Of a DNA stretch of 55,635 bases, positions 107 through 55,625 are shown piece by piece (position 1 is the stretch's first letter; each line of letters begins with the position of its first letter). Location: positions 1-55,635 of the forward strand of contig CANRHQ010000005.1 in assembly GCA_947630445.1 (NCBI GenBank), given 5' to 3'. The notes beneath the pieces were generated by a model. It had not been told where the DNA came from. It saw only the letters and a program-made list of their open reading frames with translations, and ran no database searches. The position numbers and the translations under genes were made by a program. Source of the stretch: an uncultured Clostridia bacterium (lineage in GTDB: Bacteria; Bacillota; Clostridia; TANB77; CAG-508).

Positions 107-284
107 TCTTTAATTTATCTACTTAAAGATACTTATAAATTAATTATACCATGTTTTGACAAGAAATACAAGATATTTACAAAATGTAAAATCAGTATTT
201 TAATATAGCAAAAAAACAAGTTAAAAGTAATAAATAAAGACCTCCCGAAAAGAATAAAAAATCCTTAATTAGATAAATTAAGGA
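107..284 (-). promoter_or_regulatory. Candidate invertible promoter cassette, ON orientation toward the gene at 1-86
   Basis: 24-nt inverted repeats 107-130 / 261-284 (21 of 24 positions complementary) flank exactly 130 bp. That segment carries, on the minus strand, TTGTAT (rc 166-171), a 17-nt spacer, then TGgTATAAT (rc 143-151). The -10 box lies 12 nt from the gene-proximal repeat, as in the cassettes at 6934-7117 and 55557-55625. Caveat: the distal repeat is itself palindromic and could be a simple hairpin. Confidence 0.45.
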
Positions 285-300
285 TAAAATATTTAATTTT

Positions 301-776: not shown

Positions 777-2276
777 ATGAAAAATTTAAAAAGAAATGTT
801 GATGGTATTACACTTATTGCACTAGTTGTAACCATCGTAGTGCTTTTAATATTAGCAGGAGTAAGTATAAGAATGTTATTAGGAGAAGATGGATTAATAA
901 AAATGGCAACTAAATCTGTTGATGAATACAATAAATCATCAGATGAAGAACAAAAACAATTAGATGACGAAAATAAGTACATAAATGATTTACTAAACAC
1001 AAACCCAAGCGAAGAAAATTATGATGATGTTACAGGTGGAGAAATAAAATTAATGGATACACCACTTACAATTAACACTTGCGATGGATACTATGATACA
1101 TTTTTTACGAATGGAATTGCACAAAGTTTAAGTTATACTAATCAACAAGAAATAAGAATTATTGAAGATAAAGAAACTGGAAAAATTAGTGATAAATTTA
1201 CATCATTTAATTCTGTTTTAACACAAACCAAAAATGAGTCAGGTGCAAGAACAGATTTAATAGTGGGTTGGGATCCAGATAAATATTGGTCTGATATTCC
1301 AAACAACATGATGGCTAATGCACCATATGCATTAGAATTTATGACAGATGCAGACGAAATAATTTTTTATGCTTGTGGATATATAAGAATTTCTGTTGAT
1401 TATCTTGATGGAAAAGGATATTTAATGTCAACTCTAGAAGGTTTTAAGGTTGAAGCAAATGGTACTTATAATGGTTATGTATGTGTGAATTTTGGAGAAA
1501 ACGGCAATAAGCAAAAAAATGTAAAAATTGAAACAGAAGGATCACTTAATTCATTCATTATTGGTAGCGACAAAACAATAGAAAAAGTAGTAAACCGTAA
1601 TCCAAAAAAAATATTATTTATAGGAGATAGTTGGACCGAAGGAGTAGCTATAGATGATGGAAAACGTTATCTATCATTTTCAAACATTATAGCTGATCGA
1701 TTAAATATGGCTTGTATTAATAATGGAATAGGAGGATCTGGTTATAATGAATTAACAATATCTAAGCAAGGTACTGGTCAAGGTATTGAATATGCATATG
1801 AAAAGAGATTAAATAAACAGTTAACTACTTTTCATCCTGATGTTATTGTAATAAATGGTGGTGGAAATGATGTAACTAGTGAAAAAAACATAGACGTAGA
1901 AACAACTAAAGCTCAAGCTGATTCACTATATAGCAAATTAAAAGAATACAAAGACAGCAATGCTGGTTGCAAAGTTGTTATAATGGGAGTAGAATATTTA
2001 GGAGATCCAGTTTTAGAGGAGAAAACTAGAGCATTAAATAATGCTTTAATAGAAACAGCACAAAAATATAACCTTCCATATATAGACTATGTTACAGGAG
2101 ATACTTATGGAGAAAATGGAGAAAAAATAACCATCGGCTCAGGTCCATATATAACAGAAGATTTAAAATCAAAATATATTTATTCAGATAATTTCCATCC
2201 AACAGAAGAGGGTCATAAATATTTAGGAAATGTCTTAGCAGTAGAAATGGAGAAAGCACTTAGAAGTATAAAATAA
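777..2276 (+). CDS. Pilin-like N-terminal module fused to an SGNH/GDSL-family hydrolase domain
   Basis: GAAAGGGG ends at 770, 6 nt before the ATG. N-terminus MKNLKRNVDG/ITLIALVVTIVVLLILAGV. C-terminal half has SGNH blocks FIGDSWTEG (block I), GGNDV (block III) and DNFHPTEEGH (block V). Confidence 0.85.
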   Translation: MKNLKRNVDGITLIALVVTIVVLLILAGVSIRMLLGEDGLIKMATKSVDEYNKSSDEEQKQLDDENKYINDLLNTNPSEENYDDVTGGEIKLMDTPLTINTCDGYYDTFFTNGIAQSLSYTNQQEIRIIEDKETGKISDKFTSFNSVLTQTKNESGARTDLIVGWDPDKYWSDIPNNMMANAPYALEFMTDADEIIFYACGYIRISVDYLDGKGYLMSTLEGFKVEANGTYNGYVCVNFGENGNKQKNVKIETEGSLNSFIIGSDKTIEKVVNRNPKKILFIGDSWTEGVAIDDGKRYLSFSNIIADRLNMACINNGIGGSGYNELTISKQGTGQGIEYAYEKRLNKQLTTFHPDVIVINGGGNDVTSEKNIDVETTKAQADSLYSKLKEYKDSNAGCKVVIMGVEYLGDPVLEEKTRALNNALIETAQKYNLPYIDYVTGDTYGENGEKITIGSGPYITEDLKSKYIYSDNFHPTEEGHKYLGNVLAVEMEKALRSIK

Positions 2277-2296
2277 TTATAAAATATTTATAAAGT

Positions 2297-2323
2297 CATA
2301 ACCACCAAAAATTGGTGGTTATG
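2297..2323. terminator. Hairpin shared by convergent genes (777-2276 and clpC)
   Basis: cataaccacca (2297-2307) pairs with tggtggttatg (2313-2323), 5-nt loop. It overlaps the clpC stop codon. U-tracts are weak. Confidence 0.5.
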
Positions 2324-4763
2324 ATTGATAACTGATTTTAATTTTATTTTCATTTACACTTACAATTGCATTTCTATTTTTTTCTAAATTTCCATCAAGT
2401 ATTTCTTCTGAAATCTTATTCTCTATTACATTTTGTATTGTCCTTCTTAATGGTCTAGCACCAAATGCTTTATCAATTCCCTTTTGTGCAATCATTTTAA
2501 CAACATCTTGCTGTATTGTTATATAATATTTTTGTTCTCTCAATCTATTTTCTACTTGTTTTAGCATTATTTTTGTAATATTTTCAATATCTTTATCATC
2601 TAATTGATGAAATACGATAATTTCATCAATTCTATTTATAAATTCTGGTCTTAATTCTCTTTTTAATTCTTTTATAACTTCTTTTCTTATCTCTTGATAA
2701 TCATTATCTCCTGTATTTTCATTCTCTTTTCCAAAACCTAGATACTTTTTATCTGTTATATATCTTGCTCCTAAATTTGATGTCATTATTATTACAGTAT
2801 TTTTAAAATTGACTCTCCTTCCTTGTGAATCAGTTAAATGCCCATCTTCTAATATTTGTAATAATAAATTTATTACATCTGGATGTGCTTTTTCAATTTC
2901 ATCAAACAAAATAACTGAATATGGTTTTCTTCTTACTTTTTCTGTTAATTGCCCTCCATTCTCAAACCCAACATATCCTGGAGGAGAACCGATTAATTTA
3001 GAAACTGAATGTGCTTCCATATATTCTGACATATCTAATCTTAACATTGAATTTTCATTATCAAATAATATTTCTGACAATGCTTTTGATAGTTCAGTTT
3101 TACCTACTCCTGTTGGTCCAAGAAATAAAAAAGAACCTATAGGTCTTTTAGGATCTTTCAATCCTAATCTACTTCTTCTAATAGCTTTAGATACAGCTTC
3201 TACTGCTTCATTTTGTCCAACTACTCTCTCATGTAATTTTTGTTCTAATTGTCTTAATTTTTCATTATCATCTTCTGTTAATTTTTGTATTGGTATACCC
3301 GTCCATTTAGAAATAATTTCTGCTATATTTTCTTCTGATACTTGTATTACATTATTATTTTTTCTTTTTCTCCATTTTTCTAATTCTTTATTTAATTCTT
3401 CTTGCATTCTTCTTTCTGTATCTCTAATTGTAGCAGCCTTTTCAAATTCTTGATTATAAATTGCTTCCTCTTTTTCTTTTGCTGATATTTCTATTTTTTC
3501 TTGTAAACGTTTTATCTCTTCTGGTTCTGTAAAAACTTTCATTCTTACTTGAGAAGCCGCTTCATCTATCAAATCAATTGCTTTATCTGGTAAAAATCTA
3601 TCTGTTATATATCTTACTGATAAACTTACTGCCATTTCTATAGCCTCATCAGTTATTTTTACATTATGATGTGCCTCATATTTATCTCTTATTCCTTTTA
3701 GCATTTGTATAGATTCTTTCTCTGTAGGTTCACCAACATTCACAGGACTAAATCTTCTTTCTAATGCAGAATCTTTTTCTATATATCTTCTATATTCATC
3801 TATTGTAGTCGCTCCTATTAATTGTATATCACCTCTTGCTAACATAGGTTTAAGGATATTAGCTGCATCTATTGCTCCTTCTGCTGCACCAGCTCCAACT
3901 ATTGTATGTATTTCATCTATAAATAGTATTACATCTCCTACTTTTTTTACCTCTCCTAATGCCTTTTTTATCCTTTCTTCAAAATCCCCCCTATATTTAG
4001 CTCCTGCAACCATTCCTGATATATCTATACTAACAATTCTTTTCTCTTTTAAAACTTCTGGTACTTCTCCTGATACTATTTTTTCTGCCAATCCTTCTAC
4101 TATTGCTGTTTTTCCTACTCCAGGTTCTCCTATTAAACATGGATTATTTTTTGTCCTTCTCGATAATATTTGAATTATTCTTTCTATTTCTTTGTCTCTC
4201 CCTATTATATTATCAAATTTTCCCTCTTCTGCTTTTATTGTTAAGTCCTCTCCAAATTGATTTAAAGTAGTTGTTACTGAATAACTTTCCTTATTTCTTT
4301 TTATATCTTTTTCTACTTCTTTATCACTTTCCTCTTCATTTATTACTTTTGCAATTTCATTAAATATTTTATAAGGTTCAACATTTAACTCTATTAATAT
4401 TTTTACAGCTACACATTCTCCTTCTTTCATTATTGCTAACAATAAATGTTCTGTTCCTATATAGTTATATCCTATTCTTTTGGATTCTATAAACGCATTT
4501 TCTAGGACTCTTTTTGTTCTAGGTGTAAATCCTAATGATTCTTTTATTTCTTCTCCTTTTCCTAACATTTCTTCTATTTTTTTTATTACATTTTCTTCTG
4601 TAATTCCCTTATTGGTTAATACTTTTGAAGCAATTCCTTCTCCTTCTTTTACTAGTCCATATAAAATATGTTCTGTTCCTATATAATTATGTCCTAATTC
4701 AACTGATATATCATTTGCAATTTCTATTACTTTTTTAGCTCTATTTGTAAATTTATATATCAT
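2319..4763 (-). CDS. clpC: ATP-dependent Clp protease ATP-binding subunit ClpC (class III stress AAA+ chaperone)
   Basis: 814 aa. N-terminal Clp-N repeats (GHNYIGTEHILYGL / GYNYIGTEHLLLAI), two AAA+ modules with Walker A GEPGVGKT and GPTGVGKT, and a coiled-coil middle domain. Confidence 0.95.
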   Translation of the reverse strand: MIYKFTNRAKKVIEIANDISVELGHNYIGTEHILYGLVKEGEGIASKVLTNKGITEENVIKKIEEMLGKGEEIKESLGFTPRTKRVLENAFIESKRIGYNYIGTEHLLLAIMKEGECVAVKILIELNVEPYKIFNEIAKVINEEESDKEVEKDIKRNKESYSVTTTLNQFGEDLTIKAEEGKFDNIIGRDKEIERIIQILSRRTKNNPCLIGEPGVGKTAIVEGLAEKIVSGEVPEVLKEKRIVSIDISGMVAGAKYRGDFEERIKKALGEVKKVGDVILFIDEIHTIVGAGAAEGAIDAANILKPMLARGDIQLIGATTIDEYRRYIEKDSALERRFSPVNVGEPTEKESIQMLKGIRDKYEAHHNVKITDEAIEMAVSLSVRYITDRFLPDKAIDLIDEAASQVRMKVFTEPEEIKRLQEKIEISAKEKEEAIYNQEFEKAATIRDTERRMQEELNKELEKWRKRKNNNVIQVSEENIAEIISKWTGIPIQKLTEDDNEKLRQLEQKLHERVVGQNEAVEAVSKAIRRSRLGLKDPKRPIGSFLFLGPTGVGKTELSKALSEILFDNENSMLRLDMSEYMEAHSVSKLIGSPPGYVGFENGGQLTEKVRRKPYSVILFDEIEKAHPDVINLLLQILEDGHLTDSQGRRVNFKNTVIIMTSNLGARYITDKKYLGFGKENENTGDNDYQEIRKEVIKELKRELRPEFINRIDEIIVFHQLDDKDIENITKIMLKQVENRLREQKYYITIQQDVVKMIAQKGIDKAFGARPLRRTIQNVIENKISEEILDGNLEKNRNAIVSVNENKIKISYQS

Positions 4764-5354: not shown

Positions 5355-6911
5355 TTAATATAAAAGAACTTTTCCTTTTATCTTTGTTCCTTTGCTTTCT
5401 ACCTCAATGTCATACGATCCATCTTCAAAAGTACTATAATCTATATAATTTCCACCTTCTTCTATATCATTTATTATATTATTTGATATATTTATAGTCC
5501 CTTTTTCATAATTATTAAATAAATAATAATCACATTTTCCACTATCTATTGTTAAGATTTTCTCATTTACAAAATCATATACAAGAATACCACGACCATT
5601 ATACATAGTGTAATCGTAACCATCTTCAGGAAGGCCAACTGCACGTAATATTTCATATTGGTCAATACTTATTGATAATTTTTTTAATATTTCTCCATCT
5701 ATTTTTATTACAAACTCATATTGTCCCATACCACCTATAAGACAACCATCAACTTCTTGACCATCAGCATCTTCAATCGTAATATCACAAAAATAATTTC
5801 TCAAACTAAAAATAATACCGGCATAAGATTCTTCCGTAAACTCTCCTTCATAGACTAGTCCCTCTGCATACATAAAAAAATCCTTTGCATTTGTATACAG
5901 TTTTACAGAATTACATACTTCTTGCATAAAATCCTCAAAATTCCCTGTTTTCGTTACTTCTGCTTCTTGTGCAGCTTTTAATACTAATTCTTCTACTGTT
6001 AATGTACCTGCATCATCATATTTAGTTCTTAATATTTCTATATATGATTCATATGCTTCTTCTGAATGATATCCCATAAAATTCATAACATAATCTTTTG
6101 GTGTAGTGGATAGCTTCTGCTTATCATATATTTCTTGCATATATCCTTCAAAACTATCTTGGGTTGTTAGTCCATCTTCTTGTGCAGCTTTTAATACTAA
6201 TTCCTCGTCTGTCATAAATTTATCTGGATTTTCTTTTAAAATTCTATCTTTCAAGTCTAAAGAAAATTTTAATGTGATAGTTTCTATTTTTCCACTTTCT
6301 CTATTATAACTCCCCTCAAGATAATACATATCTTCTATTTTTTCTTGTTCTGTTACTTCTTGTCCACTTCCATCTACTAACTTTCCTAATTGTACATCTT
6401 CACTTATATTTTTTCCATAGTATACCACATTATATGTGCCACCTGATGTAGCTGCTATAGAAGGGATCCATGGCATCGAATTTGGATGGGAAACCAACGC
6501 AGCCATCCTAGTCTTTCCTGTTACACCCTCTTCGACTACTTTTTCCAATTTATATACATCTTTTAGACCATCTTTTCCGTTTCCATATATCATTTTCTCT
6601 CCCATTAATTTTTCTACATTAATGATATATCCATCTATTCCTTCTTTTATACTTATTATTTCTTTCTCTGTCAAATAATCTATTAATGTTTTTGTATATT
6701 TACCTGTTTGTTTTTCTGTAGCATATTCTGTTGCTTTTAACTCTATTGCCTCATATATTCCTCTATGAGTTGTTTCTATTTTTGCTTTTTTGGCTTGTTC
6801 TATTATTCCGTTATCTCCTGCTAACATTGATATACTTACACCTGCTAATATTAAAAGCACCACTATTGTTACTACTAATGCTATTAATGTTATTCCTTTA
6901 TTCTTTTGCAT
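5355..6911 (-). CDS. Pilin-like N-terminal module fused to an unassigned extracellular region with an internal duplication
   Basis: Preferred start MQKNKG (ATG = rc 6909-6911) with AGGAGGA = rc 6921-6927; the track start 6941 lacks an RBS. N-terminus MQKNKG/ITLIALVVTIVVLLILAGVSI. The remaining ~480 aa carry no motif I can assign. Confidence 0.85.
   Translation of the reverse strand: MQKNKGITLIALVVTIVVLLILAGVSISMLAGDNGIIEQAKKAKIETTHRGIYEAIELKATEYATEKQTGKYTKTLIDYLTEKEIISIKEGIDGYIINVEKLMGEKMIYGNGKDGLKDVYKLEKVVEEGVTGKTRMAALVSHPNSMPWIPSIAATSGGTYNVVYYGKNISEDVQLGKLVDGSGQEVTEQEKIEDMYYLEGSYNRESGKIETITLKFSLDLKDRILKENPDKFMTDEELVLKAAQEDGLTTQDSFEGYMQEIYDKQKLSTTPKDYVMNFMGYHSEEAYESYIEILRTKYDDAGTLTVEELVLKAAQEAEVTKTGNFEDFMQEVCNSVKLYTNAKDFFMYAEGLVYEGEFTEESYAGIIFSLRNYFCDITIEDADGQEVDGCLIGGMGQYEFVIKIDGEILKKLSISIDQYEILRAVGLPEDGYDYTMYNGRGILVYDFVNEKILTIDSGKCDYYLFNNYEKGTINISNNIINDIEEGGNYIDYSTFEDGSYDIEVESKGTKIKGKVLLY
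5802..6212 (-). repeat. Internal tandem duplication (about 70-75 aa unit) inside the 5355-6911 CDS
   Basis: EELVLKAAQEDGLTTQDSFEGYMQEIYDKQKL..DYVMNFMGY..EEAYESYI is followed by EELVLKAAQEAEVTKTGNFEDFMQEVCNSVKL..DFFMYAEGL..EESYAGII. The DNA motif tcttgtgcagcttttaatactaattc occurs twice, about 220 bp apart. Confidence 0.7.
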
Positions 6912-6933
6912 AATTTTATTTCCTCCTTTGTTT

Positions 6934-7117
6934 TTTATCATTAATTTTATTAACTTAAAGAATTCTAAAATCCTCGGAGGCTTTTATTTTCTAGCTTTTA
7001 TCTTTTTATTAATCTTCATGAAATTCAAAAAAATTTTTTTAAATTCCTTGTAATCATTATTATATTATGTTATAATCACTTTATATATTTCTTTAAGTTA
7101 ATAAAATTAATGATAAA
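6934..7117. promoter_or_regulatory. Candidate invertible promoter element (inverton), OFF orientation relative to the gene at 5355-6911
   Basis: Perfect 29-bp inverted repeats: tttatcattaattttattaacttaaagaa (6934-6962) and ttctttaagttaataaaattaatgataaa (7089-7117). They flank 126 bp containing one strong promoter that faces away from the adjacent gene. Confidence 0.65.
7048..7076 (+). promoter_or_regulatory. Near-consensus sigma-A-type promoter inside the invertible segment
   Basis: TTGTAA (7048-7053), 17-nt spacer, TGt-TATAAT (7068-7076). The -10 box lies 12 nt from the right inverted repeat. Confidence 0.6.
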
Positions 7118-9076: not shown

Positions 9077-10720
9077 CTATCCTTCAATTACATTTAGTAT
9101 TTGTTTTTCTAATTCTTTTATTTTTTCATTTATTCTAAACATATCTTCATTTCTTAAACTTGCATCATCAACATCTTGTTTTACAATGATTTCCATATCT
9201 CTTATTTCATTATTTAATTTGTTTAATCTACTTAATATTTCTTGCTTTAATGTATTTGATTTCTTTACTACAATTTTGTTTACTATTCTTAACTCATCAT
9301 TTAATTCATAGGTTTCTCCAAATTCTGGTATTGATACTCCTATTCCTGTTTCCTCTAAAATTTTATTTTTTAATACTTCTTGTGATTCTTCTTCACCATG
9401 TACTAAAAATATGTGTTTTGGTTTTGATATAAATGAATATATAAAGTTCATTAACCATTGTTGATCTGCATGTCCAGAATATCCTTCAATATATTCAATT
9501 CTAGCATTTACAGCAATTTCTTCACCAAAAATTGTTACTTTTTTTGCCCCATTTACTATTGAATATCCTAATGTTCCTGGTGCCTGGTATCCTACAAATA
9601 ATATTGTATTATTTGGATTCCATATATTATGTTTTAAATGATGTTTAATCCTTCCAACATCACACATTCCACTTGCTGATATTATTATTGCTGGTTCTTG
9701 ACTTTCATTTAATGCTTTTGATTCATCTGCTGTTTGTGTAAATTTAAGTCCTGGAAATTCTAATGGGTTATCACCTTTTTCCATTTCTTCTTTTATTTCA
9801 TCATCAAATAAATCTGTATTTTGTCTAAATATCTCTGTAGCAGATATTGCTAAAGGACTATCAACATATACAGGTACTTTCATTAATGTCTTATATTTTC
9901 TTCTGAATTCTTCATCATCTCTATTTTCTTTTATCTTGTTTAATTCATAAAGTATTTCCTGTGTTCTTCCTACTGCAAAAGATGGTATTATTACTGTTCC
10001 ACCATTATCTATTGTTTCTGATACTATATCTAGGAATAATTCTGCTTTTTGTTCATTCCTCATATGTAACCTGCTACCATAAGTTGATTCCATAACTAGA
10101 TAATCGCAATTATCTATCATTGTTGGTGAAGCTAATAATGGTATGTCATTATTTCCTAGGTCTCCTGTAAATACAGCTTTTGTTTCTTTTCCATTTTCAG
10201 TTGCCCATATTTCAATAATACTAGAACCTAACATATGTCCAGCATCATTATATCTTACATATATATCTGGTGCTACTTCTATTATTTCATCATATTTTAC
10301 AGGTACAAATAGCTCCAAACAATTTATAGCATCTTCTGCTGTGTATAAAGGAGGTAAAATTTCTTCTCCTTTTCTTTGTCTTTTCTTATTCTTCCATTCT
10401 GATTCCATTTCTTGTATATGTCCACTATCTGGTAACATTATTCCACATAAATCACATGTTGCTTTATGTGCATATATTGGCTTTTTAAAGCCATCATTAT
10501 ATAATTTTGGTATTCTTCCAGAATGATCTATATGTGCATGTGTTAATAACATAAAATCTATTTCTGTTGGTTCAAATTCAAATGGCTTATAATTTTCCAT
10601 TTCAAGTTCTGCTTTACCTTGGTACATTCCACAATCTACTAAAAACTTTTTTCCTGCTGCTTCTACTAAAAAGTTTGAACCTGTAACCATCTTAGTTGCT
10701 CCTAAGAATGTTATTTTCAT
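9077..10720 (-). CDS. Metallo-beta-lactamase fold, beta-CASP-type nuclease with coiled-coil C-terminal tail
   Basis: 547 aa. HAHIDHSG (HxHxDH) motif and a later GHADQ-type motif. Layout resembles RNA-metabolising MBL/beta-CASP enzymes. The last ~80 aa are heptad-rich. RBS AAGGAGA. Confidence 0.8.
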   Translation of the reverse strand: MKITFLGATKMVTGSNFLVEAAGKKFLVDCGMYQGKAELEMENYKPFEFEPTEIDFMLLTHAHIDHSGRIPKLYNDGFKKPIYAHKATCDLCGIMLPDSGHIQEMESEWKNKKRQRKGEEILPPLYTAEDAINCLELFVPVKYDEIIEVAPDIYVRYNDAGHMLGSSIIEIWATENGKETKAVFTGDLGNNDIPLLASPTMIDNCDYLVMESTYGSRLHMRNEQKAELFLDIVSETIDNGGTVIIPSFAVGRTQEILYELNKIKENRDDEEFRRKYKTLMKVPVYVDSPLAISATEIFRQNTDLFDDEIKEEMEKGDNPLEFPGLKFTQTADESKALNESQEPAIIISASGMCDVGRIKHHLKHNIWNPNNTILFVGYQAPGTLGYSIVNGAKKVTIFGEEIAVNARIEYIEGYSGHADQQWLMNFIYSFISKPKHIFLVHGEEESQEVLKNKILEETGIGVSIPEFGETYELNDELRIVNKIVVKKSNTLKQEILSRLNKLNNEIRDMEIIVKQDVDDASLRNEDMFRINEKIKELEKQILNVIEG

Positions 10721-51643: not shown

Positions 51644-53956
51644 TTAATTATCTATTTTTTCAGCTGGCTTAACTGTATATTCTAAAATATTAATTGTTTT
51701 TATTATTAGTTTAGAGGCTTCATCTTTTTCGTCTTCTAACATTCCTACTCTAACTATTTTTTTACTTTCTAATTTTAAATCTGTATCTAAAATATTTGCT
51801 ATTATCCTTGTATCTTTATCCATTCCTACTGGCAATGTCTTATTTTGATTGTCATAATATACACAATTTGAAAATGCAATTGCATTTATATTCTGTCCCA
51901 AATTTACTTTATATAAATTTATTTTTGTACTTTCTGTTTCTTTTAATGCCTTTTCTATTTCTTTTTCTGGGTTTAGATTAAATACATTTAAAGCATTTGG
52001 ATTTATTGTTTCATCTTCTTCTGTCCACTTATATCCTGAAATTTCTTGGTCTAATTTATTTTTCTTTAGAGCATCCATCATTACTATTATTTGATGATTT
52101 AGTGCTACTTTATAGTCTACTGCTTGAGTTTCTTTAGATATTCTTAATATTGAATATTTATTTTTTGGTTGCTCTCTATGCGTTTTATTTGCTAATTTTG
52201 TTACTTTTCTAGTATCTTCTGCTAAACTTCCAAATATATCTATGACATCTTCTTCTGTCATGTCTTTTTCATTTTTTAAATCTGTTTTTATTTTTCTTAA
52301 TGATTGCTCTAATTCTTTTGGTTCTACTGTATTTGTTTTTAATTTATTCATTATTTTTATTTGTTCTGTTGTAGCTAGATATAAACTATCTAATTCTTCT
52401 TTTGTTAGTATTTTTCTTTGAATTTCATCCATATTTTTTCCGAATTCATCAAAGTCTTCTTCATAGTCAAATACTTTTGAATGTGTTTTTACATTTACTT
52501 GTTCTTCTTCTCCTTCTTGTAGTGTTTGAACTTCATCTTTATTACTATATTTCCAAAATTCAAATATACTTTTTTTATGACTGTCTATTTCTTGAATATA
52601 TGCTGTTGCATTTTCTATTTTCTTTACTAAATTTACATTTTTTAGTTTTAATGCATTTATATCTAATCTAGCATTTTTTACTTCTGTTTCTTTTTCATTT
52701 GCTTTTTTTCCTAATTCTAAAAGTTCATCTAGTGTATATTGTTTTTTTATTGTTTCTTTTATTTCTTCTATTTGTGGTTCGATATTATTTTCTTGTTTTA
52801 TTCTGCCTTCTACTATATTTTCCTCTTTTTGTCTTGCCTTTTTTCCACTGTATTTAAAATAATATTTTACTTTTCCAAAGAAAGATTTTTTACATTCTAA
52901 AAATGTTGATATTTGTTTTTCTTTTGCCAAATATTCTTTTTCTAATGATTCTGATTGTCTCTTTAATTTTTCTAATTTTCCTTTTAATTCAAAGTTTTCT
53001 TTATTTGCTGTTTTTTCTATTTCTAATAATTTTTTATATTCATCATTTACCCAATCACTTAATTCATCATATTGTAATAATTTATCTTGATAGTGAAATT
53101 CTAAACTTCCTTGTTTGTCTATTTGTGTATCTATTTGATAATATGATGGTAGTTCTGATGCTAAAATGAATAATGCTTTTACTAATTTAAAGAATTTGGT
53201 TGATTCGATTTTGTTTGAAAGTTTTACTTTGTATTCTGATTTTATTTTCCCATATACTTCAGTCTGTCCAACTATTTGTAAACTTGCTTTTTCATTTTTG
53301 TCATATACTTCATATATTGATGGCCAATCTTTTGTAAATAGCCATAAGTAATTTTCTAAACTTTGTATTTCTGTTTTATTTAATAATTCTTTGGTATAAT
53401 CTGCATTGCTTATTGGAACAAATACTTTTCCTGCTTTTTTCTTTTCTATTTGTTTTTTTAATACATAAAAAAATGTTGAATAGTCTTTGTCTTCTGTTGG
53501 TACTATCATAAAATATTTTTGACTTTGTGAAGAATAATATATTTGCCATAAATAATTTCCTGGATATCTTACTTTGAATGGAATTTTTTTGTTGATCTCT
53601 TGTTGTTCTTTTTCTATATTTTCTATTTCTTCTATTTTAACTTCTTTTAACATTCTTAAAAATGTTTCATTTTTTTCTTTATCTTCTTCATTGTTTGGGA
53701 GTAAATAAGATATCAATGGGCTTGCTTTTGCATATTTGTCTTTTACATCATCTAATCTATTTGTTGGAGATAGTAAAATTTCTATTTCTTTTGGAGAAAC
53801 AAATCTATATTGTCTATACTTCTTTTCATCAAATCCTACATTTGGTTTGAATTGTAAGTCTTCTATTAATTTTAATGATTCTGGTATTTCTTTTAGATTT
53901 AGTCCTATATATTCTAATTTTTTTGTTAGTTCTTGTTCTCTGTTTTTCTTTTCCAA
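51644..53956 (-). CDS. Large hypothetical protein (about 770 aa), coiled-coil-rich centre
   Basis: Preferred TTG start at 53956 (GGGAG = rc 53965-53969, 8-nt spacer); an alternative ATG at 53977 has no RBS. The track start 54061 would place the terminator at 54008-54039 inside the gene. No recognisable catalytic motif. Confidence 0.7.
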   Translation of the reverse strand: MEKKNREQELTKKLEYIGLNLKEIPESLKLIEDLQFKPNVGFDEKKYRQYRFVSPKEIEILLSPTNRLDDVKDKYAKASPLISYLLPNNEEDKEKNETFLRMLKEVKIEEIENIEKEQQEINKKIPFKVRYPGNYLWQIYYSSQSQKYFMIVPTEDKDYSTFFYVLKKQIEKKKAGKVFVPISNADYTKELLNKTEIQSLENYLWLFTKDWPSIYEVYDKNEKASLQIVGQTEVYGKIKSEYKVKLSNKIESTKFFKLVKALFILASELPSYYQIDTQIDKQGSLEFHYQDKLLQYDELSDWVNDEYKKLLEIEKTANKENFELKGKLEKLKRQSESLEKEYLAKEKQISTFLECKKSFFGKVKYYFKYSGKKARQKEENIVEGRIKQENNIEPQIEEIKETIKKQYTLDELLELGKKANEKETEVKNARLDINALKLKNVNLVKKIENATAYIQEIDSHKKSIFEFWKYSNKDEVQTLQEGEEEQVNVKTHSKVFDYEEDFDEFGKNMDEIQRKILTKEELDSLYLATTEQIKIMNKLKTNTVEPKELEQSLRKIKTDLKNEKDMTEEDVIDIFGSLAEDTRKVTKLANKTHREQPKNKYSILRISKETQAVDYKVALNHQIIVMMDALKKNKLDQEISGYKWTEEDETINPNALNVFNLNPEKEIEKALKETESTKINLYKVNLGQNINAIAFSNCVYYDNQNKTLPVGMDKDTRIIANILDTDLKLESKKIVRVGMLEDEKDEASKLIIKTINILEYTVKPAEKIDN

Positions 53957-54007
53957 AATAGTCGCTCCCTTCCTCATTTTTATATAGTATATTTTACTAT
54001 TCAATTC

Positions 54008-54039
54008 AAAAAATAGCAAGATTTTTCTTGCTATTTTTT
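54008..54039 (-). terminator. Rho-independent terminator after the pilin-like FGE gene
   Basis: aaaaaatagcaag (54008-54020) pairs with cttgctatttttt (54027-54039), 6-nt loop. Confidence 0.75.
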
Positions 54040-54105
54040 GTTTTTTTATATTCAAAATCATAATGCTCTATATCTTTTGAGTAATTAATTTGAAAGCACA
54101 AATTT

Positions 54106-54262
54106 TTACTTGACGTACAGTGTGGCACGTGAACTAAGATCGATGATGCTGTCGGCAGGACTATTGCTGTCGCGGTAACTAGCTGGCCAGTTAGAACCGG
54201 AAACGCCGTAAGCGCCCCCACGATTATCACGAGAGTTGATGCCGTAAGCCTCTAGAGACCAT
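54106..54262 (-). other. Candidate DGR variable region (VR) at the 3' end of the FGE-domain gene
   Basis: Right after ..REW the codon usage flips. 21 of the last 50 codons end in C (TAC GGC ATC AAC TCC CGC GAC AGC GCC GTC..). All four Arg codons are CGT/CGC. The apparent scaffold codons lack adenine (GGG GGC GCT GTT GGT TCT TGG CCT CTT CTG). I counted 33 A in 150 nt, in an otherwise A-rich gene. Confidence 0.55.
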
Positions 54263-55512
54263 TCCCTCATGTTTCCTGCTAGGTCATATATATTTTTTAC
54301 TCTATTTAATACTTGTTCATCTTTTTTTAAATCTACTCCTGTTTTATGGTCGCTATTAGTATTATTATCACTTCCTTTTACTCCACTGTACCAGCCCATT
54401 CCACTACTATCTGTTATATAATACTTATTTCCTCCTGTTAATGTTGGATTTTTTTCATCTTTCATCCACAACATTACTTGGTCCCACTGGCATCCCCATA
54501 TCATGCTACTTGTTACACTTGACTGTGTTTTTCCTTGTGTTTTTTCTTCCTCTGTTAATGCTCCTTTTGCTATTTCTTTACTATTTTTATACATTGTATA
54601 CCAATTTGTGTCTACTGTTGGATTTTCTCCCTTTTTTACTTTTGGAATTTCATTGTCTTTTAATCCTGATGTCTCGTATCTTCCTATATAAAAACCTCCA
54701 TATTTTCCTACACTTTTTGCCATTTCATAAAATTCGTTTTGTAATTGTTCTAAAAACTTTTCACTTGTTTTTACTTCTCCTTCTACTACTTTATTTAAGT
54801 TTGTATCGCTTCCATCACATTGTGTTCCATCTCCACTAGAATTGCCAGTTACTACTGCTGGCTCTCTATATCCACTGTTCGCATTATATGTTGTATTTGA
54901 TGTTAATGTATTACCATTAATAGTTGTATATAGCTTTCCTACCAATTCTTGGTTGCTTGGCGTATGTGTTTCACTTTCACCATGAGTACAAGTGAATGTA
55001 TTTGTTTCCTTATTAAAAGTAATTGTAGATCCTGAATGCGTTTTACACATTACCATATCATTTATTGCTACTGGCACCCATACAAATTCATTTCCATCTC
55101 TATCTTGTACTACTATTCCTTCATCTATTTTGTCTCCTTCTGTTATTTTAAATCCTGCTGGTATAGTCATACTTTTGTCTCCATCTTTTACCTCTGTTGT
55201 TTCGTTAAATGGGTCAGTTTTTTCCTTTGCTTCTTCTAATGTTGTTTGTGTTGTTCCTCCACCAGAACCATCTCCTCCTGTTCCTCCGTTTACCCAATTT
55301 GGTATATCTTCTGCTGTTTTGTTAAGGTCTTGCTCTTCTTTTGCTTCCTCTTCCCTTGTTCTTTCTGCTGCTAGCTTTGCTTGGGCTATTATTCCATTTT
55401 CTCCAGTTAACATAGCAATAGCTACTCCTGCTAATATTAAAAGTACTACTATTGTTACTACTAATGCGATTAAAGTGATACCTCTTGTTGCCTTCAAATT
55501 TTTCTTTTTCAT
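54106..55512 (-). CDS. Pilin-like N-terminal module fused to an FGE-sulfatase / C-type-lectin-fold domain
   Basis: 468 aa. RBS GGAGGAAG. N-terminus MKKKNLKATRG/ITLIALVVTIVVLLILAGVAI and a Gly-rich linker. The FGE-type domain runs from MTIPAGF..FVWVP to YDLAGNMREW..RGGAY..SYR....P, matching the GN(V)WEW / RGGSW / R..R pattern of that fold. Confidence 0.85.
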   Translation of the reverse strand: MKKKNLKATRGITLIALVVTIVVLLILAGVAIAMLTGENGIIAQAKLAAERTREEEAKEEQDLNKTAEDIPNWVNGGTGGDGSGGGTTQTTLEEAKEKTDPFNETTEVKDGDKSMTIPAGFKITEGDKIDEGIVVQDRDGNEFVWVPVAINDMVMCKTHSGSTITFNKETNTFTCTHGESETHTPSNQELVGKLYTTINGNTLTSNTTYNANSGYREPAVVTGNSSGDGTQCDGSDTNLNKVVEGEVKTSEKFLEQLQNEFYEMAKSVGKYGGFYIGRYETSGLKDNEIPKVKKGENPTVDTNWYTMYKNSKEIAKGALTEEEKTQGKTQSSVTSSMIWGCQWDQVMLWMKDEKNPTLTGGNKYYITDSSGMGWYSGVKGSDNNTNSDHKTGVDLKKDEQVLNRVKNIYDLAGNMREWSLEAYGINSRDNRGGAYGVSGSNWPASYRDSNSPADSIIDLSSRATLYVK

Positions 55513-55556: not shown

Positions 55557-55625
55557 TTTCTTTAATTTTTTATGCTTAAAGAAAATGTATGAACTAATTA
55601 TAACAAAGAGGGACAATAAGTTCAA
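55557..55625 (-). promoter_or_regulatory. Promoter plus gene-proximal repeat of a third cassette, ON orientation; distal part lies beyond the window
   Basis: TTGAAC (rc 55620-55625), 17-nt spacer, TGt-TATAAT (rc 55597-55605), 12 nt, then TTTCTTTAAGCATAAAAAATTAAAGAAA (rc 55557-55584). This element is related to the CTTTAAG..ATAAA.TTAA repeats at 107-130 and 7089-7117. Confidence 0.5.

Follow-up and report, generated by a model that had tools for sequence, protein, structure and literature searches.

A probable diversity-generating retroelement variable region without a neighbouring cassette in a pilin-leader lectin gene of uncultured gut Clostridia

The stretch analysed here (the window), 55,635 nt of DNA from an uncultured Clostridia bacterium, carries near its far end a minus-strand gene, the target gene, whose 3' end has the features of a variable region (VR) of a diversity-generating retroelement (DGR). 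The encoded protein consists of an N-terminal pilin-like transmembrane helix, a low-complexity Gly/Thr linker, an ectodomain with the FGE/C-type-lectin fold, and the C-terminal VR. An independent contig from the European Nucleotide Archive (ENA), designated L001, bears the same gene and extends 10 kb past the window end. Contigs with relatives of the target gene are numbered L002 to L022, and relative proteins or clusters carry P-numbers. The positions of all features are collected in Table 1.

Table 1. Features of the target locus and of related loci. Positions refer to the window unless a contig is named; TR, template repeat; RT, reverse transcriptase; IMH, initiation of mutagenic homing.
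Feature	Position	Strand	Description
Target gene	54106..55512	-	468 aa; ORF, same gene called on the independent ENA contig L001
Pilin-like leader KATRGITLIALVVTIVVLLILAGVA	55420..55494	-	like a prepilin N-methylation motif with Ala at +5; weak Pfam N_methyl; helix 10-36 modelled
Putative DGR variable region, TR-homologous core	54119..54252	-	134 nt; encodes EAYGINSRDNRGGAYGVSGSNWPASYRDSNSPADSIIDLSSRAT; codon/composition switch, family VR columns, TR comparison
Conserved VR 3' boundary CACTGTACGTCAAGTAAAAATT	54101..54122	-	22 nt; candidate IMH-like element; identical in four loci
Weak AT-rich hairpin from the stop codon	54080..54110	-	placed like the hairpin/cruciform 3' of DGR VRs; DNA fold -5.1 kcal/mol, z=-1.4
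Bidirectional intrinsic-terminator-like palindrome 3' of the gene	54007..54040	.	15-pair stem + T-run; none expected in shuffles
Proximal arm TCTTTAAGCATAAAAAATTAAAGA of inverted repeat	55559..55582	-	24 nt, 96%; flanks 132-nt segment
Distal arm of the target gene's inverted repeat	L001 9775-9798		80-103 nt past the window end; inverted-repeat search
Promoter-like TTGAAC-17-TGnTATAAT	55597..55625	-	in the flanked segment, toward the gene (ON); = L001 9888-9916, plus strand
Second inverted-repeat cassette	arms 6934-6970 / 7081-7117		immediately upstream of a minus-strand same-leader gene
Third inverted-repeat cassette	arms 104-130 / 261-287		immediately upstream of a minus-strand same-leader gene
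Same-leader gene	777-2276	+	leader shared with the target gene
Same-leader gene	5355-6941	-	leader shared with the target gene
Same-leader gene, runs off window start	from ~85	-	leader shared with the target gene
Lys/Glu-rich protein downstream of target	51644-54061	-	probably starts at 53956
tRNA-Met gene	L001 9627-9703	-	about 115-190 nt past the window end
TR and VR of L007	L007 11490-11614 (TR); 9241-9368 (VR)		differ at TR adenines
TR and cis VR of L014	L014 1299-1442 (TR); 3634-3800 (VR)		out of codon register
Decayed cassette	L012 2240-3320		also in L015
MutS_I-domain accessory gene	L007 9634-10056; L009 5037-5459; L014 2975-3364 (-); L022 310-720		between target and bAvd
Shared sequence 3' of TR	L014 ~1280-1300 (-); L018 ~2480-2510; L021 ~3590-3620; L022 ~2290-2320		
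Conserved ~200-nt block	L012 2240-2470; L013 6785-6880; L014 3400-3633 (-); L018 1-250		

The 3' end of the target gene stands apart from its surroundings in composition. Its last 150 nt before the stop codon have a GC content of 0.53 and an A content of 0.21, compared with 0.34 and 0.46 in the remainder of the gene and a GC content of 0.26 for the whole window. Among all 150-nt windows in the 55.6 kb the GC content peaks at position 54111, and 54068-54321 is the sole region in which it reaches 0.45 or more. A preliminary description of the stretch had placed a codon-usage switch directly past the motif YDLAGNMREW, with Arg codons changing from AGA/AGG to CGT/CGC and with 21 NNC codons in the tail, and each of these observations was reproduced. 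All eight Arg codons earlier in the gene are AGA or AGG, and the four among the last 51 codons are without exception CGT or CGC, a usage that accounts (as CGN) for 25 of 483 Arg codons (5.2%) over 38 other ORFs of the window (P for four of four ~7e-6). NNC codons make up 21 of the 51 tail codons versus 4.0% in the other ORFs (binomial P=1.5e-16), and NNA codons 7.8% versus 56% elsewhere. The low A content noted earlier also stands, the count of 33 in the last 150 nt becoming 32 on recount. The contrast is real and far above chance. Gly, Ser, Arg and Tyr abound in the segment, and a cause unrelated to any DGR might be sought in its amino-acid composition or in selection on such a motif. The shift, however, lies in synonymous choice (CGY versus AGR, NNC 41% versus 4%), and the DNA aligns to bona fide template repeats (TRs) with adenine-specific differences; codon statistics and TR alignments together effectively refute this explanation and leave it with next to no probability.

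The alignments concerned are those with TRs of related loci. Over 96 nt shared with the TR of L014, mismatches of the window VR affect 19 of the 37 adenines in the TR and 6 of its 59 other bases (Fisher P=1.2e-5), and over 81 colinear nt of the L018 TR there are 16 mismatches at A and 4 at non-A. This bias toward adenines, seen against heterologous TRs, therefore argues that the segment descends from a TR of that type by adenine mutagenesis. The AAC/AAT codons of the TRs fall on columns that are variable in amino acid (4.4 versus 1.9 distinct residues over seven VRs). Synonymous-codon identity among paralogues, compared inside and outside the VR, was uninformative, as codon bias alone gives ~0.8 outside it. 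On these grounds we consider it probable, at roughly 0.87, that the last ~135 nt of the target gene are a VR written by a DGR from such a TR through adenine mutagenesis.

In such a scheme, the TR RNA would be reverse-transcribed by a complex of the DGR reverse transcriptase (RT) and bAvd that misincorporates opposite template adenines, and the resulting cDNA would replace the 3' end of the target gene. Homing would leave the adenine-poor, GC-rich codons of the TR as a scaffold (CGT GGG GGC, TCC GGT TCT, CCA GCT AGT, CGC) and, in place of its AAC/AAT codons, randomised NNC/NNT codons. RT, Avd and TR would have to be, or to have been, elsewhere in the chromosome, as for remote targets of the Treponema type; homing in trans is what we infer for the window locus.

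The protein family places the VR in a familiar setting. At least 7,873 homologues of the target protein exist, the best being 61-65% identical, and their C termini conform to the consensus EWTLEAxxxxxRVxRGGxxxxSGSxxPASxRxxxxPTxxxxxxSSRxTLYV. The scaffold is invariant in the family alignment and variability is limited to fixed columns; the window VR fits both. Complete cassettes, made up of the target, a MutS_I-like gene, bAvd and RVT_1, are present in L007 and L009, and the TR and VR of L007 differ at TR adenines. In L021 the TR and the cis VR differ at adenines only. The cassettes of the family are chromosomal, adjoining for example hrcA-grpE-dnaK-dnaJ. L014 comes from a rabbit-gut metagenome-assembled genome (MAG) labelled 'uncultured Clostridia bacterium'; its target is 55-59% identical to the window protein, and its cassette holds an accessory gene, bAvd (NF033474, NCBIfam DivGenRetAVD, E=3e-20) and an RT of 349 aa, which is followed downstream by a TR. 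Further TRs, in L018/L019 and L022, were found via RT homologues. The window protein is thus homologous to targets with a verified cis TR, VR and RT (L007, L009, L014, L021). Because its homologues reside in canonical cis cassettes with adenine-specific TR/VR mismatches and the window VR shows the same bias against heterologous TRs, the DGR-type VR proposed in the preliminary description is borne out.

The cis loci of the family (L007/L009, L014, L018-L022) resemble the window locus in the layout of leader and FGE/C-type-lectin domain, in the VR scaffold and in the placing of TR AAC/AAT codons at contact positions, with 38-65% protein identity. They differ in having the MutS_I-like gene, bAvd, RT and TR immediately downstream, where the window locus has none, and in their 3' ends: the window gene ends in LYVK and a stop codon followed by an AT-rich hairpin, whereas the cis loci end in LYVNL, a stop codon and the hairpin AAACCC-GTAA-GGGTTT. 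The window gene is one of several dispersed paralogues in an uncultured rabbit-gut Clostridia lineage, some of which adjoin complete cassettes.

Three further features of the cis cassettes were observed. A small protein with a MutS_I domain (PF01624) is encoded between the target and bAvd in L007, L009, L014 and L022, an accessory gene not known from the classical layout of BPP-1. On their 3' side all four TRs are followed by one and the same sequence, CTCTAATACAAATTC[CT]AGATAATATATTTTA, though the TR bodies differ; it is probably part of the DGR RNA 3' of the TR. Between the VR and the accessory gene lies a conserved, relatively GC-rich block of ~200 nt, which contains the hairpin AAACCC-GTAA-GGGTTT and two tandem copies of CCACTTCGTGGTATA; its first ~90 nt are kept at L013, a locus without a cassette. 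The block may act as a target-recognition or RNA element.

Pfam detected no domain in the window protein alone (E <=0.01), and the domain assignment rests on family Pfam matches, a profile search and structure comparison. An AlphaFold model built on 29 relatives (mean pLDDT 83.7) has a helix at residues 10-36, a disordered Gly/Thr-rich linker and, beyond roughly residue 90, a domain that is well folded. Searched against the PDB with Foldseek, it matched solely FGE-type C-type-lectin folds, among them PorK, Treponema TvpA (2Y3C, probability 1.0), pFGE/FGE, PvdO and the DGR proteins TaqVP and Mtd. Over its last ~55 residues the family profile retrieved pFGE (1Y4J) at E=1e-4, and PF03781 (FGE-sulfatase) is matched in 11 of the 29 relatives. 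These results agree with the fold first suggested, an FGE-type C-type lectin with a C-terminal VR. The VR lies at the C-terminal end of the fold, with the scaffold invariant and the contact positions variable, as in DGR targets.

The pilin-like N terminus described earlier holds in part. The helix is modelled, N_methyl is weakly matched in 22 of the 29 relatives (best E=1e-4), and in the PDB the family profile matched MshA, PilA and geopilin weakly over the leader. The window protein itself remains below the N_methyl threshold (13.3 bits versus a cut-off of 21.2, E=0.064), and its leader, written RG/ITLIALVVTIVVLLILAG (RG/ITLIA), has Ala at +5 where pilins carry Glu, so that it departs from the pilin pattern G-[FI]-T-L-[IL]-E. 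No prepilin peptidase or pilus assembly gene is annotated by Pfam within the window. The protein is therefore called pilin-like, rather than a pilin. It is predicted to be a membrane-anchored, pilin-leader surface protein in which the VR would encode the ligand-binding face of the FGE/C-type-lectin fold. The leader KGITLIALVVTIVVLLILAG also heads unrelated ectodomains in the window, which include a GDSL/SGNH hydrolase (PF13472, E=2e-21) and a 528-aa protein without a Pfam match; judged from these sequences, it seems to behave as a common export and anchoring module for a set of surface proteins.

The 3' end of the VR is marked by a boundary that is identical in the window, L002, L016 and L017, paralogues that are otherwise 44-59% identical and come from different MAGs. 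It is built of G/C-ending codons that are otherwise rare in the host genomes. An AT-rich inverted repeat adjacent to the stop codon occurs in three of the four loci of this type: a perfect stem of 9 bp closed by a 4-nt loop in L016 (z=-3.2), a 9-bp stem in L002 and the weak hairpin of Table 1 in the window. L017 has none at this position. Loci of the LYVNL type (L012-L014) have the conserved downstream block with the hairpin AAACCC-GTAA-GGGTTT instead. The terminator reported earlier after the gene is present as a palindrome with a T-run. The shared boundary might alternatively have served as a recombination anchor, the GC-rich tail being imported by gene conversion or horizontal transfer from a DGR-target paralogue with no retrohoming at the window locus; lineages do carry several paralogues whose scaffold DNA is near-identical. 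The variable codons of the window VR, however, are unlike those of every paralogue seen, so that no donor paralogue is known, and the 5' junction lies where TR homology begins in verified cassettes. Import, which we regard as improbable, would in any case still imply a DGR origin of the sequence.

Several results weigh against reading the segment as a VR written by a DGR. The window contains no second copy of it (blastn, word size 7), and neither the window nor the 10 kb beyond contains an RT, Avd, accessory homologue or remnant (tblastn, Pfam); the span free of a cassette thus runs from -54 kb to +10 kb around the VR, in keeping with the earlier statement that no TR, RT or Avd is present in 55 kb. 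Pattern scans of GTDB genomes, JGI metagenomes and IMG/VR did not find a donor TR. The exact donor pattern, CGTGGGGGC-N12-TCCGGTTCT-N6-CCAGCTAGT, was without a match in genome and viral contig collections, and a relaxed form matched only the L014 TR and the L015 VR; both forms fix CGTGGGGGC and would miss a TR with GGA or CGA there, as in L018. A degenerate pattern in which every VR base is either itself or A and the 22-nt boundary were without a match in JGI metagenomes and IMG/VR. The source genome is evidently outside the scanned genome set, because the VR did not match itself there. Searched by blastn against phage and plasmid collections, the VR gave no match. None of the four recovered TRs (L014, L018/19, L021, L022) is colinear with the window VR, so they are not its donors: between CCT and the final CGT the L014 and L018 TRs have ten codons and the window VR nine, the L021 TR is shorter than the window VR and the L022 TR is of a different type. 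From the closest TRs, the VR also differs at 4-6 non-adenine positions. No close variants of the window protein, a singleton, exist in the database, and when its C-terminal 129 aa served as query for near-identical fragments that carry a variant VR, 11 candidates and two weak matches resulted. Its hairpin is weak (z=-1.4). Finally, among the nearest relatives, the clusters P0001, P0003 and P0004 differ across samples outside the VR and not inside it, and P0002 is identical in three samples. The 90% cluster of the window protein has as its representative an unrelated JGI peptide of 56 aa (P0122), apparently through an artefact of clustering.

The relatives illustrate several fates of such loci. 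No RT lies within the contig or 10 kb of the closest-type paralogues in L002, L016 and L017, nor of L013. Beside the closest homologue, L012 and L015 hold a decayed cassette that lacks a TR and consists of an in-frame MutS_I-like/Avd fusion and an RT that breaks off after 28-33 aa. It is present in two independent assemblies. The VR of L012/L015 differs from the L014 TR, which comes from a different MAG of the same sample as L012, by 22 adenine mismatches and 2 others. The cassette-less paralogues and this VR show that close relatives have either undergone trans-type homing or kept VRs after their cassettes decayed. In L014, whose cassette is apparently intact, the cis VR and the TR do not share a codon register (+1 codon before CCT and -1 after it in the VR); either the VR is older than a TR indel or the metagenomic contig is chimeric. 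In L017 the segment is partly ameliorated, with AGG and AGA codons and a GC content of 0.49, and in P0007 (66% identical) the VR is frameshifted and truncated, a decaying copy. In the more distant clusters P0053 and P0063 the VR columns vary, and the family is therefore actively diversified somewhere.

If the segment was written by a DGR, its VR could still be live, rewritten in trans by a cassette elsewhere in the genome with a TR colinear to 54119-54252, or it could be orphaned or quiescent, written in the past and now subject to ordinary mutation only, the donor TR having changed or the cassette having been lost. The state of the sequence speaks for a live VR: the reading frame is unbroken, the contrast in composition persists undiminished at a genomic GC content of 26%, and the boundary with its G/C-ending codons is conserved and followed by a hairpin, albeit a weak one. 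Its four non-adenine differences from the L018 TR in 81 nt equal in number those between that TR and the L014 cis VR, which lies beside an intact RT. RTs of the clade are abundant in the same sample series, and the absence of a cassette is weak evidence because DGR cassettes there assemble into short, easily unbinned contigs. Remote targets are, moreover, typical of chromosomal, non-phage DGRs (PMC5758913). Against this, no fitting TR occurs in anything searched, none of the four recovered TRs has the codon register of the VR (4 codons, then 9), the VRs of relatives are static across samples, and in the MAG GCA_947632525.1 the sole cassette found (L021) is unable to serve the gene of the same type in L016. 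We consider a live VR possible, at odds short of even.

An orphaned VR accords with the decayed cassette beside the closest homologue, with the register mismatch of L014, with the static VRs of four relative clusters, with the amelioration in L017 and the frameshift in P0007. In addition, three of the five or six non-adenine differences from the nearest TRs are C-to-T, the direction of the AT pressure on the genome. On the other side, the rare G/C-ending codons have decayed very little despite the extreme AT bias, and each genome may have its own unsampled TR, those sampled coming from genomes other than the one that carries the window VR. We give an orphaned or quiescent VR about an even chance, and it is at least as likely as a live one. 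Of the preliminary description of the gene as a remote (trans) target, the absence of a cassette from the 55 kb holds; a functioning trans target does not follow, with no cognate TR or RT found in the sets searched, four TRs that are not donors, static VRs in relatives and one decayed cassette. That description was largely right on the identity of the segment and is unproven on its present function.

Upstream of the target gene, the inverted-repeat-flanked promoter that had been proposed is confirmed, with 24-nt arms and a 132-nt spacer that contains TTGAAC-17-TGnTATAAT. The layout is that of an inverton, in which inverted repeats surround a short promoter-bearing segment, here with an extended -10 element. 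Two more cassettes are found in the window, upstream of minus-strand genes with the same KGITLIALVV leader as the target; all three are ~110-130 nt, share a TCTTTAAG/CTTAAAGA core in their arms and lie 10-25 nt upstream of the ribosome binding site. Homologues in L002 and L005 have analogous upstream cassettes with the TCTTTAAG core. Each promoter was seen in a single orientation (window as L001; L002 as L003), so inversion was not observed, and Pfam detected no site-specific recombinase in the window. Judged by arms and layout, the three cassettes resemble a family of invertible promoters served by a single recombinase. The contig L004, from a third sample, begins exactly one base past the proximal arm of the P0002 gene (its position 1 is L002 9978), an assembly effect to be expected of mixed promoter orientations or of a repeated arm. 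A larger scheme, in which one chromosomal DGR serves dispersed pilin-leader lectins in trans, each switched by its own invertible promoter with a TCTTTAAG-type arm, and in which the window gene is live, appears to us rather unlikely; ON/OFF inversion of the promoter and hypermutation of the binding site by the DGR would then act on a single adhesin. The literature searched describes no DGR target behind an invertible promoter.

The remainder of the window is annotated by Pfam with housekeeping and cell-envelope genes only, including ClpB, FtsK, MutL, MiaA, MreB, Era, RecO and cell-wall glycosyltransferases, and the 10 kb past its end encode YkuD, TruA, CdaA, RNase HII and HtrA. A phage-borne DGR was considered and rejected: the window is core chromosome, and related cassettes adjoin hrcA-grpE-dnaK. 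Directly downstream of the target, and preceding era and recO, is a gene for a Lys/Glu-rich protein of 770-805 aa without a Pfam match. The distal arm of the target gene's inverted repeat is adjoined by a tRNA-Met gene whose promoter, TTGACA-17-TATAAT, is strong.

Comparable systems are known. The DGR of Treponema denticola serves TvpA and six further chromosomal targets, with genes far from the RT (PMC5758913, PMC4891356). TvpA shares with the window protein the FGE-type C-type-lectin fold and a VR that occupies the last ~130 nt, ranks high among the structural matches (2Y3C), and is likewise a cell-envelope protein of a host-associated bacterium. The two have only ~16% sequence identity; TvpA is a lipoprotein, whereas the window protein would be anchored by its pilin-like N-terminal helix, and the TR that serves remote VRs is known in Treponema, whereas no cognate TR of the window VR was found in the sets searched. 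The Mtd/Brt/Avd system of phage BPP-1 resembles the window locus in adenine-specific mutagenic retrohoming into a C-terminal VR of a C-type-lectin fold, and Mtd is among the weaker fold matches. In BPP-1, an IMH and a hairpin lie downstream of the VR. Mtd, however, belongs to a phage tail fibre, its cassette lies in cis and its IMH is GC-rich, whereas the window gene is chromosomal and dispersed in an AT-rich genome. In Bacteroides, DGRs diversify the tip adhesins of type V pili (bioRxiv 10.1101/2024.11.15.621889); the text of that study is without the words 'invertible', 'inverton', 'phase variation' and 'remote'. As at the window locus, the host is a gut commensal and the target an adhesive surface protein that is pilus-associated or pilin-like, though the phylum is another and the pilus is of type V, where the leader of the window protein is of the type IV-like N-methyl kind. 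Cellular targets of DGRs are, as a rule, membrane-anchored, and standard DGR pipelines need a TR/VR pair on one contig and so miss loci without a cassette (PMC8144416).

Remote chromosomal targets of the FGE-type C-type-lectin fold and DGR-diversified pilus adhesins are thus already known, and the window locus belongs with them, in a Clostridial family without a name. The VR of a DGR can be recognised by composition alone in a very AT-rich genome, even with no TR or RT nearby, and a large Clostridial family of pilin-leader surface lectins, with cis, remote and decayed copies, is added to the targets of DGRs. If the VR is orphaned, the gene would be an example of DGR targets that persist once the element has moved on; if it is live, the VR and an invertible promoter would together give two layers of variation on one adhesin of an uncultured gut clade.

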